64,000 nt of DNA from Alphaproteobacteria bacterium (GTDB lineage: Bacteria > Pseudomonadota > Alphaproteobacteria > CAAGCB01 > CAG-977). The stretch lies in contig CAAGEP010000003.1 in NCBI GenBank assembly GCA_900768875.1, positions 333,298 to 397,297 on the forward strand, read 5' to 3'. The notes beneath the pieces are model-generated. The model worked only from the letters and a program-made list of their open reading frames with translations. It had not been told where the DNA came from and did no database searches. Below are positions 32,484-39,083 of the stretch, piece after piece; the stretch's first letter is position 1, and each line of letters begins with the position of its first letter. Made by a program: the position numbers and the translations under genes.

Positions 32484-35400
32484 ATGAAATTGTCAAAATC
32501 CGCAGCGGGCATATTGTCCGCACGTTACAAATCGGTTTTAATCAAATGTTTGCTGGCGAATTTGATGTTGTTTTCCCTGCCCGCCGCCGCGGCGGAAACA
32601 ATTCCAAACGAAACGTATGCAAATAAAACTTTTGATTCTCCCTCCGACGGTTCTTATCTGATTGAGGGTGGCACGTTTGAAAAATCGCATATTAGAGCAT
32701 CCGACGACATTACAGTATCGGGCGGAACGTTCACGGGATCAGGGCTTTATGCAGACAACAACATTAACATATCAGGCGGAACGTTTACGAATTCAGGGCC
32801 TCTGGCGGACAACGACATTACAATATCGGACGGAACGTTTACGAAATCAGGGCTTTATGCAGGTTACAACATTAATATATCAGGCGGAAATTTTACAGAT
32901 TCGAGTTTCAGTGCAAGAAGACTCATCATTAACGGCGGCAAGATTGAAGGAACACTGAGTGTTGATAGACATCCCGATATATCGATTGATTCTGATGCCG
33001 CTGTTGTCAATCTGACATGGGATAAAAATTCAGCACCCCCTCCGTCTTCAATCACAGCAGACTCTTTGAACATTACGGGCGAGCACGGGATTTCTGTTTC
33101 AAACACCGCCTTTGATTCATGGAATACTTCGGGAAAAATAACGGCGAACAGCAATTCGCTTTTGGGACAATTTTGGGAAACCGGTGATTATGTTTACCAC
33201 ATTGGCGGAAAAACGTTGCACACCGCTGCCGCCGCTTCCTCTTCTTCTTACAACGATACGCAACTAACTGCTTTTTCAGACGCAACCATCGTTTTAAACG
33301 GCGATTCTGTTGCCGGCAGCGGGTATTATTCCATGTCATCCGATGTTGTTGCATCTATGCCTCCGCCGCCTGCTCTGGGATCACTTCAGCCATACAGCGT
33401 TGAAGGACAAACCGCCGATAATGCCCCGCTTCAAATTTTGCGCAAAGAATTGACGCCGGATGAAATCAACACTGCCATAAATTTCATCTGGAACGATGTG
33501 AACAACGCCAACGATGAAAATGACTTGACGGACTTTACAAAAGCTGTTCTTGGCTCAATCCTTTCAGGTTCTAATGCTCCTCCTCCTTCTATAACGGACA
33601 TAAAAGAACACGAAACTGATTTTAAAACCCTATTAACAGAACATTACGCCAACTTCAATTCATTTTTAAAAGCAACACCGAACACCAACGTGATCATTTC
33701 CGCATCAACGTTTGAATTAAACGACAACGCGAAGCTGATTAACGACAGCTTTTCGTCGGATTATCACGAAGCCGGTCCCGAATCCTTTCCCACAGGAAGT
33801 ATCACCACCTTTGGAGCGGGCAACATAACTGTAAAAGACTCAACCGTTATCGCCAAAGCCAACAACGAACTGTCCGCCCGTTCCGGCAATGTCATATTTC
33901 AAAATTCAACGTTGAAAGTCGCCGAAAACGCCGTTTTGACCTTTTCGTCCGCAGGCGGCGCGCTGTTGCTGGACAGCGGATCGGAGCTTTATTTGGCGGG
34001 GAAAATGAAGGGCAACGTCTTTTCCGACGAGGATGCGGCAGTCATTTTTGAATCGTCGAACGCGCGGCTGGACGGCACTTTGTCGGGGGCGGCGAACGCC
34101 GTCTTTAACGCCGATTACGCGTTAAGCAATCTGAACCGTTCAAATAATTTTGAATTCCGCAACATCGCCATTATGGACGGCAAAACGCTGGACATCGGAA
34201 CAACCGCGCTGAAAGCCGACAAAATATCGGGCGGGACGATTTCGGCGATTTTGACCGATGCCGCCAAAACAACGCCAATCATTACCGCTGCCGCCGAAAA
34301 CGTCACGATTAAATTGGATATGAGCGCGGCTTCTTCCACCCAAACAACGCTGTATCACATTACGAAAGAAACGGGGTTCAAGTTAAGCGATTATTCAACG
34401 TCCCGCTATGCCGTTTCTTCGCGTCCCTTTGACGTTGCCGACGCTTCGAAAGTCGGCGTTTTAAGCAACTGGAACGGCGGGGATTTGTACATTTTGCGCT
34501 TGGGCAATTCGACCCCCTCCATTGTTGACGATGTGAAACAAAGCGGCATTACCGTTAATCCCGTCATTGAAAAAGCATTGGGCATTATTGATCTGGATGA
34601 CGAATCTTTGGGCAAATTGACCGATGAACAGCAAAAAGCTTTGGATAAAATTGACGACTTGCTGACGAAATTCGACCGCAACCCCGAAAAGAAATACCAA
34701 GTTTTGCGCGAAGTCGCGCCAAGCTTGTCTAAATTCAACATCCTTGTCGATGAAACAACCGCCAAAAACGTCATCAACGTTGTTTCCTCACGGTTCAACT
34801 TGCCGAATTCACCGCACATTCCGCGCAGCTACAGATTATACGGACGTTCCGGCGGCAATTATGAAGCGGGGAACAGCACCGTTTGGGCGCAAGGCATGTA
34901 TAACCATGCGGAACAAAGCGGAACAGAGGGCTTTTCATCCAATTCGGCAGGATTTACGGCGGGTATCGAAACATGGCTGTCCGACGATTTCAAAGCGGGT
35001 GTCGGATACTCTTATACCTCAACATCCGTTGATTCGGACAGATCCGACGTTGATGTTTATACACACACCGGCTTTTTGTACGCTCAATATCAGCCAAAAC
35101 GTTTTTACACAAACTTTTTTGCGGGCTTCGGTCATTCGGCCTATACAGACACGACAAAAATCGCAAAATTGGAAAGTGAATACAAAACAAACACGGCCAG
35201 CGCGCAAATTGCAATCGGATATGCCGTGCCTGTGTTGGCTCCCGAAGTCGCCGTGCGCGTCATCAATACACACAAAAAAGCCTACACCGACGCTTTGGGG
35301 GTTGAACTGAAAAGCAAGGACAGCACCACCGCTACCGCTGTCGGCGGCCTCAAACTGTCAAAACATTACAGGATGCGGACAAATTCCGCCGTCGTGTTTA

Positions 35401-35648
35401 CGCCGGAACTGAAAGCCGCCGCCACATACGATTTCGTCCGCACCAACAGCGACAGAACCGCATTGCTGCCCAACGGCACAAGCTATATCGTCCAAACGGA
35501 AAACGATAAACGTTTCGGTATTGAAGCCGGCGCGGGATTTTCGTTCGATTTCGGGAAAAACGGCACAGTGTCGCTTCTGTATGACGGGATGTTCCAAGGG
35601 AAATTAAACAGCCATTCCGCCGTGCTGAATGTAAAAATCAATCTGTAA
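32484..35648 (+). CDS. autotransporter (type Va) with beta-helical repeat passenger and C-terminal beta-barrel translocator
   Basis: 1054 aa; long signal peptide (MKLSKSAAGILSARYKSVLIKCLLANLMLFSLPAAAAE), tandem ISGGTFTxSG repeats, conserved linker, ~280-aa C-terminal barrel with aromatic-rich strands; paralogous to 45426..48764. Confidence 0.8.
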   Translation: MKLSKSAAGILSARYKSVLIKCLLANLMLFSLPAAAAETIPNETYANKTFDSPSDGSYLIEGGTFEKSHIRASDDITVSGGTFTGSGLYADNNINISGGTFTNSGPLADNDITISDGTFTKSGLYAGYNINISGGNFTDSSFSARRLIINGGKIEGTLSVDRHPDISIDSDAAVVNLTWDKNSAPPPSSITADSLNITGEHGISVSNTAFDSWNTSGKITANSNSLLGQFWETGDYVYHIGGKTLHTAAAASSSSYNDTQLTAFSDATIVLNGDSVAGSGYYSMSSDVVASMPPPPALGSLQPYSVEGQTADNAPLQILRKELTPDEINTAINFIWNDVNNANDENDLTDFTKAVLGSILSGSNAPPPSITDIKEHETDFKTLLTEHYANFNSFLKATPNTNVIISASTFELNDNAKLINDSFSSDYHEAGPESFPTGSITTFGAGNITVKDSTVIAKANNELSARSGNVIFQNSTLKVAENAVLTFSSAGGALLLDSGSELYLAGKMKGNVFSDEDAAVIFESSNARLDGTLSGAANAVFNADYALSNLNRSNNFEFRNIAIMDGKTLDIGTTALKADKISGGTISAILTDAAKTTPIITAAAENVTIKLDMSAASSTQTTLYHITKETGFKLSDYSTSRYAVSSRPFDVADASKVGVLSNWNGGDLYILRLGNSTPSIVDDVKQSGITVNPVIEKALGIIDLDDESLGKLTDEQQKALDKIDDLLTKFDRNPEKKYQVLREVAPSLSKFNILVDETTAKNVINVVSSRFNLPNSPHIPRSYRLYGRSGGNYEAGNSTVWAQGMYNHAEQSGTEGFSSNSAGFTAGIETWLSDDFKAGVGYSYTSTSVDSDRSDVDVYTHTGFLYAQYQPKRFYTNFFAGFGHSAYTDTTKIAKLESEYKTNTASAQIAIGYAVPVLAPEVAVRVINTHKKAYTDALGVELKSKDSTTATAVGGLKLSKHYRMRTNSAVVFTPELKAAATYDFVRTNSDRTALLPNGTSYIVQTENDKRFGIEAGAGFSFDFGKNGTVSLLYDGMFQGKLNSHSAVLNVKINL

Positions 35649-37325: not shown

Positions 37326-38024
37326 ACGCGTCCACGCCCCGCCAACAAAGTATTCCAACGGCTGAAATTTCGCTTTGTACGCCATATTTGATACAGACTT
37401 TATCCAATAACCCAGATAAACGTAGGGCAAGCCGATTTTTCGCGTCTCCTCTATCAGCTTTAAAATCATCACGGTGCCAAAGCTTCGCCTGCCCTGCTCC
37501 GGATTAAAAAAACTGTACACCGCCGACAATCCGTCGTCCAACACATCAACCAGCATCGCGGCTTGCAGTTTTTCCCCCTCGCGCACTTCCATAATGGCGG
37601 AATCGACCGCAGCGTCCTCTATCATCGCGCGGTACTCCTCGTAATACATTTCCGTCATATCGCTTTCGGCATGGCGGCCGATCAGGTATGCCGAAAACAA
37701 ATCAAACTGCTCGGTCGTTGCTATGTTCGGCATAAACGCGATTTTCGCCGCTTCGTTCATTCGCAAAACTTTACGCATTTTCTTGGACGGCCGAAAGTCG
37801 AAAACGGGAATACGCACGGATACACATTCGTCACAGCGGGAACAAGCCGGAATATAGCAAACACCGTGCGACCGCCGGAAACCGGCGCGGCTCAGCTTAT
37901 TATTCCAGTCCTGTGCAAACGCCCCCGATATGTCAACCGCCAGTTTTGTTTCCTCGCGTCCCGCAACATAAGGACACGGTGCGGGCATTGTCGAATAAAA
38001 AGATTTCAGTCCGTTTTCCGTCAT
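37311..38024 (-). CDS. bpt: arginyl-tRNA--protein transferase (bacterial Bpt/ATE family)
   Basis: 237 aa; N-terminal CxxC...CxxC region (CPYVAG...CSRCDEC) and C-terminal ATE domain (YVYLGYWI). Confidence 0.75.
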   Translation of the reverse strand: MTENGLKSFYSTMPAPCPYVAGREETKLAVDISGAFAQDWNNKLSRAGFRRSHGVCYIPACSRCDECVSVRIPVFDFRPSKKMRKVLRMNEAAKIAFMPNIATTEQFDLFSAYLIGRHAESDMTEMYYEEYRAMIEDAAVDSAIMEVREGEKLQAAMLVDVLDDGLSAVYSFFNPEQGRRSFGTVMILKLIEETRKIGLPYVYLGYWIKSVSNMAYKAKFQPLEYFVGGAWTRSFPD

Positions 38025-38198
38025 TGTTCCAACCTTTTGATTTCGTTTATACGGCTTTTAAGTTAATTTTTGATTTTTTTCTTGACGGATGCGTTCTTTT
38101 TTTACTATCCTGAGAAAGTAATTTTTCGGCAAGTCCTTTATCGGCTTGCAAATCCTAAAGACCACCTTCGGGTGGTCTTAGTTGTATCGGAGAACCGT

Positions 38199-39053
38199 GT
38201 GGTTAAAATTTGCTACATCGACGAATCGGGGGATTTGGGAACTTTGCCCGTTGTGGAAAATCCCGACGGCAACCACCAGCCCGTTTTGGCAATCTGCGGC
38301 ATTTTCATCGACCACGAATGCCTGTACGATCTGACTCACGATTTCATCGGGCTGAAATACCGCTACTATCCGCATTTGAACTATGAAACCGACAAATACC
38401 TTGACCGCATCATCCCCGAAATCAAAGGTGCCGACTTGCGCCGCAACGCCATGCGCGGCGGACATCGCGTCCAGCGGCACGCCATCGGATTTCTGGACAG
38501 AATCGTCGATTTGTTTTTCAAATACAATATCCGCATCGTCGGGCGCATCTGGGTCAAAGTCCCCGGCGAACCGTTCAACGGCAAAGCGGTTTACACTTCG
38601 TCGATTCAAAGCATTTACACCTACTTTGACAACTATTTGAAAGAACATGACGATTTCGGTTTTTGCGTCGCGGACAGCCGGGACTATATAAAAAACATCA
38701 ACGTTTCTCATTCCGTTTTTACGCAAAAATTCCGCGCTTTGCACCCGCTGTATCAAAACATCGTCGAAATGCCGTGCTTTGGACACAGCAACAATTTGGC
38801 GGGATTGCAGTTGTGCGATATTCTGTGTTCCGCGTTTTTGTTCCCGATTGCCAGCTACGTTTATTGTTCGGACGTCGTGCACAATGTCCATGTCCAGCCC
38901 GCCGCCCTTGATTTAAGGGAACGCTACGGGCACCGCCTGCGCGAACTGCAGCACCGCTTTACCAACAGCGCGGGGTTCAACATGGGCGGAATCGTCGTAT
39001 CCGACCCGCTGCAAAAGAAAAACGCTATCGCCATGTTCAAGGATGTAAAATGA
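38199..39053 (+). CDS. DUF3800 domain protein (possible RNase H-like fold)
   Basis: ~284 aa from GTG 38199 (GGAGAA 4 nt upstream); starts VKICYIDESGDLG, the DUF3800 hallmark; upstream in-frame GTG/TTG alternatives back to 38070. Convergent with a bidirectional terminator at 39053..39080. Confidence 0.6.
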   Translation: MVKICYIDESGDLGTLPVVENPDGNHQPVLAICGIFIDHECLYDLTHDFIGLKYRYYPHLNYETDKYLDRIIPEIKGADLRRNAMRGGHRVQRHAIGFLDRIVDLFFKYNIRIVGRIWVKVPGEPFNGKAVYTSSIQSIYTYFDNYLKEHDDFGFCVADSRDYIKNINVSHSVFTQKFRALHPLYQNIVEMPCFGHSNNLAGLQLCDILCSAFLFPIASYVYCSDVVHNVHVQPAALDLRERYGHRLRELQHRFTNSAGFNMGGIVVSDPLQKKNAIAMFKDVK

Positions 39054-39080
39054 AAAAGCGGAGGATTTTCCCCCGCTTTT
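39053..39080. terminator. bidirectional intrinsic terminator between DUF3800 (+) and basic hypothetical (-)
   Basis: AAAAAGCGGAGG-ATTTTC-CCCCGCTTTT: GC stem with one bulge, A-run 5' and T-run 3'. Confidence 0.55.
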
Positions 39081-39083
39081 GAT

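Follow-up and report, generated by a model that had tools for sequence, protein, structure and literature searches.

Proteins of the large Pfam family DUF3800 recur as unexplained accessories of retrons and of Cas12a2, Cas12a3 and Cas13 loci. In retron type VII the DUF3800 protein has been modelled on RNase H2, with DE and QxxD motifs named (Mestre 2020, PMC7736814), and other reports describe DUF3800 as an RNase H fold with catalytic rearrangement (Altae-Tran 2023, PMC10910872), as an RNase H fold nuclease (Makarova 2025, PMC12669027) and as RNase H-like (the Cas12a3 paper, PMC13594972). DUF3800 genes are also accompanied by structured RNAs: eleven unrelated motifs, DUF3800-I to DUF3800-XI, lie beside them in either orientation, often with terminators, and their discoverers had no functional hypothesis to propose for them (Weinberg 2017, PMC5737381). 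The locus described here lies in a 64,000-nucleotide stretch of contig CAAGEP010000003.1 from an Alphaproteobacteria bacterium (hereafter the window) and consists of a promoter, a conserved structured RNA and a DUF3800 gene. It joins a known class, that of a DUF3800 gene with a DUF3800-associated RNA, and is best read as encoding a nuclease with a cognate partner RNA, probably of regulatory or antitoxin-like character.

The window protein shares the DE and QxxD motifs and the predicted fold with the DUF3800 proteins of retron type VII, with the TPR-DUF3800 proteins of Cas12a2 and Cas12a3 loci and with Csx32 of the Cas13-associated CASK, but it is a stand-alone protein of 284 residues whose neighbours include no reverse transcriptase, TPR, kinase or Cas protein. 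It retains the conserved Q of QxxD, which retron-associated DUF3800 proteins lack (PMC7736814), and falls in a tight subfamily that has a dedicated RNA and whose members remain at least 40% identical across phyla. This RNA resembles the motifs of Weinberg 2017 in its covariation, its link to DUF3800 in either orientation and the terminator-like hairpin that often follows; a UAA trinucleotide is likewise common just before P1, the first of its two hairpins. The succession of promoter, non-coding RNA, hairpin (terminator-like in many copies, though not in the window) and predicted nuclease gene recalls that of type III toxin-antitoxin systems (ToxIN, CptIN, TenpIN), and, as in these, the unit occurs on small plasmids and in prophages and its RNA can survive loss of the gene, the reverse being almost never seen. 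Unlike type III systems, it carries a single-copy RNA rather than a tandem array and a predicted RNase H fold rather than a ToxN/Kid-like one, and has no PADLOC match. Coordinates of all features are given in Table 1.

Table 1. Features of the promoter-RNA-gene unit and its 3' boundary, in window positions.
Feature	Position	Strand	Basis or location
Sigma-70-type promoter: -35 TTGACG (38082-38087), 18-nt spacer, -10 TATCCT (38106-38111)	38082..38111	+	consensus scan
Structured RNA, full match to covariance model R1	38123..38187	+	cmsearch, 44.4 bits, E = 1.8e-8
P1 hairpin GCAAG-U-CC / GG-CUUGC: lower stem, bulged base, short upper stem	38129..38149	+	
Conserved single-stranded linker AAAUC	38150..38154	+	
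P2 hairpin CUA(A)AGACCACC-UUCG-GGUGGUCUUAG: 11 bp, one bulged A, UUCG tetraloop	38155..38181	+	
Conserved U-rich tail UUGUAU (family consensus YUGUUU)	38182..38187	+	
Shine-Dalgarno GGAG, six bases 5' of GTG 38199	38189..38192	+	read from sequence
DUF3800 open reading frame, 284 aa, GTG start, predicted RNase H2-like metal-dependent nuclease	38199..39053	+	
YIDESGD motif, Y6-D12; D8 and E9 putative first catalytic carboxylates	38214..38234	+	end of beta-strand 1
D159-S-R161 of the ADSRD motif	38673..38681	+	end of strand 153-159
Q204-L-C-D207, C-terminal QxxD signature of DUF3800	38808..38819	+	in helix 201-223
Bidirectional intrinsic-terminator-like hairpin AAAAGCGGAGGAUUUUCCCCCGCUUUU, common to the convergent 262-aa gene	39054..39080	both	

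The approximately 90 nt 5' of the start codon are nearly identical in the window and in a locus with different neighbours (L005) whose DUF3800 protein is 73% identical. Upstream regions of 76 orthologous loci, drawn from Alpha- and Gammaproteobacteria, Armatimonadota, Actinobacteria, Verrucomicrobiota, Planctomycetota, Nitrospirota, Myxococcota and others, define the family architecture. Specifically, P1 (GCCG-A-CCC...GGG-CGGC) contains a bulge and a variable apical part, the linker reads ARAYC, and P2 is an 11-bp stem, CUAYGGCCACC-tetraloop-GGUGGCCRUAG, followed by the Shine-Dalgarno sequence and by the start codon, which lies 11-31 nt past the end of P2. The linker and the first bases of P2 together form a near-invariant A-R-A-Y-C-CUA stretch in the family alignments, the loops are mostly UUCG or GNRA tetraloops, and variation is confined to loops of 3-5 nt and the P1 apex; RNA length ranges over about 65-90 nt. 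The window copy has a lower P1 stem of 5 bp, compared with 4 bp in the family model; the minimum free energy fold of its + strand reproduces P1 and P2 (z = -3.4), and model R1 matches nowhere else in the window.

Covariation supports this structure throughout. RNAalifold detects compensatory changes at 11/11 P2 pairs, and in a clean seed of 33 sequences 98.6% of cells are paired, compared with 29-48% when the partners are slid. In the model-based alignment 96.9% of cells are paired and 17 of the 18 pairs have changed on both sides; the 7 modelled P1 pairs all show changes on both sides, with 93.7% of cells paired, while P2 reaches 98% against 29-44% in slid controls. Among 80 distinct full-length copies, 49 cells hold G·U and only 3 hold A·C, an asymmetry that fixes the transcribed strand and argues against a DNA operator. 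Of 84 sources collected through the protein, 83 contain a single full-length R1 match, which always adjoins the gene. At gathering score, Rfam 15 yields no relevant family over the whole window and 16 loci, including the entries DUF3800-I and DUF3800-IX (RF02969, RF02968), and in sensitive mode it yields no match in the two stretches scanned. Compared with the Rfam models, the RNA is thus either a twelfth DUF3800 motif or one of motifs II-VIII, X and XI that was never added to Rfam, and R1 supplies a covariance model for an RNA missing from that database.

The promoter recurs across the family together with the RNA. Of 79 distinct copies, 64 have an exact TTGAC -35 box in the 75 nt that precede P1, whereas control stretches placed another 300 nt upstream contain one in 3 of 78 cases; the -10 box ends a median of 20 nt before P1. 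Additionally, six loci from Rhodobacterales, Rhizobiales and Caulobacterales carry a complete RNA on the strand opposite to the gene and about 75-85 nt upstream of it, and every one of these copies has its own TTGAC promoter, short P0 hairpin and U-rich tail. No consistent open reading frame follows these six copies, and in one of them (L067) the RNA runs into the end of a convergent gene. Metagenomes add four further inverted, divergent copies about 110 nt from the gene. The inverted copies score 63-69 bits, among the best R1 matches, and the RNA is therefore under selection even where it is unable to act in cis. With terminator-like defined by a minimum of 5 T in 8, P2 and its tail qualify in 43 of the 74 co-oriented copies and in all 6 of the inverted ones. 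Together, these observations firmly support a promoter-RNA-gene unit whose RNA is structured and has a function of its own; this conserved partner upstream of the gene is absent from a preliminary description of the locus, made from the sequence alone, which concerned the protein.

The partnership also emerges when the search begins from the RNA. Metagenomes scanned for the P2 pattern alone gave 59 loci, 41 of which adjoin a DUF3800 gene of the subfamily; in 37 the gene follows in the same orientation after 11-31 nt, and in 4 it is divergent and about 110 nt away. Among the remaining 18, nine show a weak or partial match only, with the P2 palindrome at its centre, contig ends truncate three, four are orphan RNAs, and the last two (L120 and L128) have a split and a different gene, respectively. 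In L120 (L120:7423-8724) a TnpB/OrfB_IS605 element splits the gene after codon 11, and in one of the protein-first loci (L059:412-4636) an IS21 IstA/IstB element does so at about residue 70; in each case the RNA is intact and high-scoring. In L128 (L128:386-1374) a full-length RNA of 54 bits precedes a YhcG/DUF1016 PDDEXK nuclease gene with no DUF3800; either the DUF3800 gene has been replaced or the RNA is able to partner a different nuclease. Among the protein-first loci, the only gene without RNA has a replaced or rearranged 5' end (L046). The RNA occurs without the gene in 5/47 cases and the gene without the RNA in 1/84 (Fisher p = 0.02), and the RNA therefore outlives the gene more often than the reverse. 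An all-against-all BLAST of the flanking open reading frames of 83 loci detects no other conserved neighbouring protein; its only returns are shadow frames within the gene and synteny among close relatives.

The protein encoded at the locus reads V(M)VKICYIDESGDLG... from GTG 38199. Its Pfam DUF3800 (PF12686) score of 56.6 bits exceeds the cut-off of 21, and the match (E = 6.4e-15) covers positions 1-147 of the 149 in the profile, in agreement with the family assignment of the preliminary description; the YIDESGD N-terminus and the later segments FGFCVADSRDY and HSNNLAGLQLCDIL that it had quoted all read in the translation exactly as stated. A word-indexed search returns 434 homologs at E <= 1e-3, and an exhaustive search returns 557 clusters at 50% identity. 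All 54 close homologs share residues D8, E9, G11, D12, D159, R161, Q204 and D207, and the motifs YIDESGD, ADSRD and QxCD persist in relatives of as little as about 31% identity. In a wider set of 59 sequences, most of them only 29-49% identical, Q204 is invariant and D8, E9, E74, D159, E190 and D207 are at least 90% conserved, so that the loss of acidic residues, which would have spoken against a nuclease, is not seen at this distance. The Pfam scan returns DUF3800 alone and not RNase HII (PF01351), and the PHROGs scan gives a marginal match only (E = 0.015).

An AlphaFold2 model built from a 54-sequence alignment (predicted local distance difference test score 92, predicted template modelling score 0.91) places D8-E9 at the end of strand E2-10. 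In a Foldseek search of the PDB with this model, archaeal and human RNase H2 fill the 11 top places (including 2dfe at E = 8e-5, 1io2, 1eke_B and 3puf; E = 8e-5 to 3e-3, probability 0.91-1.00); the ranks below hold RNase HIII, a further RNase H2 complex and weak Argonaute matches. Template modelling (TM) scores to RNase H2 reach only 0.3-0.47, and the protein is therefore placed as a remote member of the RNase H-like superfamily. In the viral library BFVD the top match is a phage DUF3800 protein, with RuvC-like resolvases and RNase H in a weak tail. The RNase H-like reading of the preliminary description is thus supported on both counts named there as decisive, since the predicted structure resembles a nuclease and the acidic residues are conserved among homologs. 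Sequence and profile searches of the PDB return nothing meaningful. With RNase HII/H2 (PDB 1eke, 2dfe, 3puf) the model shares a first strand leading to adjacent D-E and then glycine, and further conserved aspartates at a strand end and in a helix; it differs by extra helices (residues 67-108), a C-terminal sub-domain and the lack of a GRG motif, its IDESGDLG resembling the IDEAGRGP of RNase HII in other respects. The window also encodes a canonical RNase HII, rnhB, at 44397-45023 (+), with the motif GIDEAGRGP, and the DUF3800 protein is therefore not the housekeeping type 2 RNase H of the cell; an hhalign comparison of the two proteins gives no signal (probability 0.2). Collectively, an RNase H-type fold with conserved carboxylates is a firmly supported prediction for the DUF3800 frame, from which a nuclease activity may be inferred.

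Delimiting the RNA also settles where the protein most likely begins. The open frame spans 38070..39053 (+) and offers four in-frame candidates, TTG 38070, TTG 38082, GTG 38172 and GTG 38199, an ambiguity that the preliminary description had rightly pointed out. TTG 38082 coincides with the -35 box and GTG 38172 falls in the 3' arm of P2, while most of the 54 close homologs start 2 or 3 residues ahead of the (I/L)C(Y/F)(I/V)DE motif. Because the other codons overlap the promoter or the hairpin, because GGAG is suitably spaced and because most homologs start at the equivalent place, the reading of the sequence settles on GTG 38199. A 96%-identical relative (P0001) is called as 293 aa from the codon equivalent to GTG 38172, which lies inside the 3' arm of P2; this call is therefore an over-extension into non-coding RNA. 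For annotation, fixing the start codon matters since gene callers extend the frame into the RNA hairpin.

Promoter, RNA and gene are inherited and transferred together across many phyla. A mobilizable ColE1-type Klebsiella plasmid of 4.55 kb carries the unit, RNA included, as its main cargo, and the unit is likewise present with its RNA on a 14-kb Thiothrix plasmid near parA and on 15-kb Acinetobacter pittii plasmids; carriers among cultured bacteria include Sphingobium indicum, Agrobacterium, Rhodobacter amnigenus, Thiothrix and Acinetobacter pittii. On a Pseudomonadota chromosome (L089:10875-20840) it stands at the edge of a defence island containing a DpnII/MboI restriction enzyme, GmrSD, a resolvase and an 1846-aa DEAD/YjiV_N/MZB helicase. 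Some copies occupy prophage cargo positions. In another locus (L088:7866-10843) the unit directly follows rpsM-rpsK-rpoA, at the usual place of rplQ, and precedes a DUF2283 gene, with phage terminase genes about 4.5 kb further on. The GenBank phage collection and complete E. coli genomes give no match. The window belongs to a clade of uncultured Alphaproteobacteria from gut and rumen, in which about 11 species-level genomes preserve the order ppa-hyp-UPF0047-ate-[RNA+DUF3800]; the DUF3800 protein is 77-88% identical there, compared with 54-60% for ate and 61-69% for UPF0047. Its better conservation relative to these neighbours suggests strong, long-term purifying selection.

The leading explanation, plausible while falling short of probable, is a self-contained unit of promoter, RNA and RNase H2-like DUF3800 nuclease in which the RNA acts as a restraining, antitoxin-like partner and the whole serves in genetic conflict. 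Transcription would start about 12-14 nt before P1, and a large share of transcripts would stop at P2 and the U-tail, releasing a free small RNA. Read-through would produce the DUF3800 mRNA, with a ribosome-binding site 7-10 nt after P2, such that termination at P2 would set the RNA-to-protein ratio. The DUF3800 protein may then recognise the sequence-conserved P2 and linker, so that the RNA would be the cognate partner holding the nuclease in check, in the manner of an antitoxin, and could double as a translational operator where it is co-oriented. Once freed or activated, the nuclease would cut RNA or RNA:DNA hybrids through a putative metal centre of D8, E9, D159 and D207. The role would most likely be plasmid addiction or phage defence, as may also apply to DUF3800 proteins of retron type VII and of Cas12a2, Cas12a3 and Cas13 loci.

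Several observations weigh against this antitoxin-like arrangement. The stable housekeeping site in the gut clade looks more like that of a core function than of a conflict gene. Unlike type III antitoxins, the RNA occurs as a single copy, a scan of 37800-39300 having found no tandem repeats, and the tail of the window copy has only 4 T, is not called as a terminator and would be a poor one. Scans of the protein find no NCBIfam match and no defence family of PADLOC-DB 2.0 at E <= 1. A transposon-sequencing study of Legionella found an accessory, strain-specific DUF3800 gene to be essential and listed it beside antitoxin genes, a result that a simple model of DUF3800 as a toxin does not predict. 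Finally, the literature search found neither enzymology nor a demonstration of binding, cleavage or toxicity for any DUF3800 protein. The earlier statement that DUF3800 has no characterised function holds to that extent; the RNase H-like idea itself is not new, having been published before as a prediction.

The main rival, unlikely as it appears overall, is an obligate ribonucleoprotein with a cellular function, in which the RNA is a structural or targeting subunit comparable to RNase P RNA, to Y RNA with Ro or to omega-RNA with TnpB/IscB, and in which the complex would process or survey a conserved cellular nucleic acid contacted by linker and tail. The stable, highly conserved gut-clade copy favours it, through long vertical inheritance at a fixed site and a protein better conserved than its housekeeping neighbours, as do the very strong co-conservation of RNA and protein, unpaired bases included, and the continued selection on separately transcribed RNA. 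HEARO and IS605-orfB motifs, from surveys of the laboratory that also reported the DUF3800 motifs, reportedly proved in later work to act as guide RNAs for nucleases with an RNase H fold (RuvC). The present RNA, however, has no variable stretch beyond its short loops, and thus no segment long enough for a guide, which makes a guide-RNA function unlikely. Moreover, the patchy distribution over small plasmids, prophages and a defence island points to an accessory role, and insertion sequences have repeatedly inactivated the gene without loss of the host. A purely cis-acting leader, that is, an attenuator, operator or riboswitch in the 5' untranslated region controlling DUF3800 expression only, would account for the position of the RNA between promoter and Shine-Dalgarno sequence in about 90% of loci and for the terminator-like P2 and tail in most copies. 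Such a leader would always lie on the same strand as the gene, whereas six plus four inverted copies, about 75-110 nt upstream with their own promoters, no downstream gene and high scores, as well as orphan RNAs, do not. P2, its supposed expression platform, is also the most sequence-conserved part of the RNA, unlike riboswitch terminators, which together with the inverted copies renders a cis-only role improbable.

A reversal of roles, in which DUF3800 would be the protective side, a type V-like antitoxin RNase acting on a harmful RNA (perhaps the neighbouring small RNA itself) by degradation or processing, would fit the essential Legionella gene, although the Legionella protein is not placed in the subfamily of the window. 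In this subfamily, however, IS21 and TnpB elements that split the gene leave the RNA intact, as does absence of the gene, a state that should be lethal with a toxic RNA; the reversed arrangement is very improbable. Still less likely is a DNA-level element, in which the palindrome is an operator or recombination site and DUF3800 is, for instance, a DDE-like recombinase of a small mobile unit. P2 is indeed a near-perfect 11-bp palindrome, the neighbourhood of the unit changes between relatives, and an imperfect 21-nt direct repeat flanks the unit in the window. Against these stand the strand-specific excess of G·U over A·C, the UUCG and GNRA tetraloops, a P1 that varies in length while keeping its pairing, and a promoter at a fixed distance upstream; the window shows no terminal inverted repeats or convincing target duplications, and the point where synteny with a close relative (L001) breaks does not coincide with the 21-nt repeat. 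As for the protein, the DEDD-like (DnaQ-like) 3'-5' exonuclease that the preliminary description had offered as an alternative is scarcely credible and was set aside. A hydrophobic strand ending in acidic residues and further conserved D and H residues had suggested it, but the motif has adjacent D-E rather than DxE, no Pfam exonuclease family matches, and the best structures are RNase H2, then Argonaute PIWI and RuvC-like proteins, with nothing DnaQ-like among the top matches.

Beyond this locus, it is conceivable, though on the doubtful side, that DUF3800 proteins with dedicated RNAs, the present architecture and the eleven of 2017 alike, form an unrecognised class of RNase H-fold nuclease systems. 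These would be either a new type of toxin-antitoxin or abortive-infection module, pairing an RNase H-like toxin with a single-copy structured RNA antitoxin, or a ribonucleoprotein in which the RNA guides the nuclease to a conserved target. If true, the class would explain the DUF3800 accessory proteins of retron type VII, Cas12a2, Cas12a3 and Cas13 (Csx32) loci. The subfamily of the window represents the simplest form, with one promoter, one RNA of about 70 nt, one 284-aa protein and no other conserved partner. Such a minimal unit, available in cultured carriers and on a small plasmid, makes the protein-RNA relationship experimentally tractable with few constructs.

Further observations concern the surroundings of the unit and minor candidates. 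An Acinetobacter pittii plasmid (NZ_CP131868.1; L159:1-1013) carries a second DUF3800 gene, of 217 aa, adjoining a protein kinase gene; the pair resembles Csx32-Csx33 of the Cas13-associated CASK, and no Cas13 is annotated there. A 96%-identical relative (L001) shares the downstream genes with the window and has YajC-SecD-SecF upstream instead of ate. Similarity between window 38023-38110 and L001 7824-7950 begins approximately at the -10 box, and a rearrangement breakpoint therefore lies right at the promoter of the unit. The two copies of the imperfect 21-nt direct repeat, which are 76% identical and have CTTTTGATTT in common, lie on either side of the unit at 38023-38043 and 39065-39085; the repeat is probably a chance event, since its second copy belongs to the terminator. 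That hairpin was called on the - strand by the terminator scan, and its + strand reading, an A-run, stem and U-run, comes from the sequence; weak sraA matches at 39015-39137 are merely this terminator hairpin. A P0 hairpin predicted in the window at 38112-38127 was dropped because transcription, judged by the promoter spacing, begins within it, and sequestration of the Shine-Dalgarno sequence by the CCU-containing linker, although plausible, was dropped for want of convincing covariation. The convergent hypothetical genes at 39084-39872 (-) and 39875-40642 (-) encode proteins of 262 and 255 aa with no Pfam match; they are shared with L001 (92% and 82% identity) and are not in the examined stretches of other relatives. 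Nearby lie genes for a 1054-aa autotransporter-like protein with repeated G-rich motifs and for a pyruvate:ferredoxin oxidoreductase (32484-35648 (+) and 40645-44634 (-), respectively), which are consistent with an anaerobic, host-associated alphaproteobacterium.

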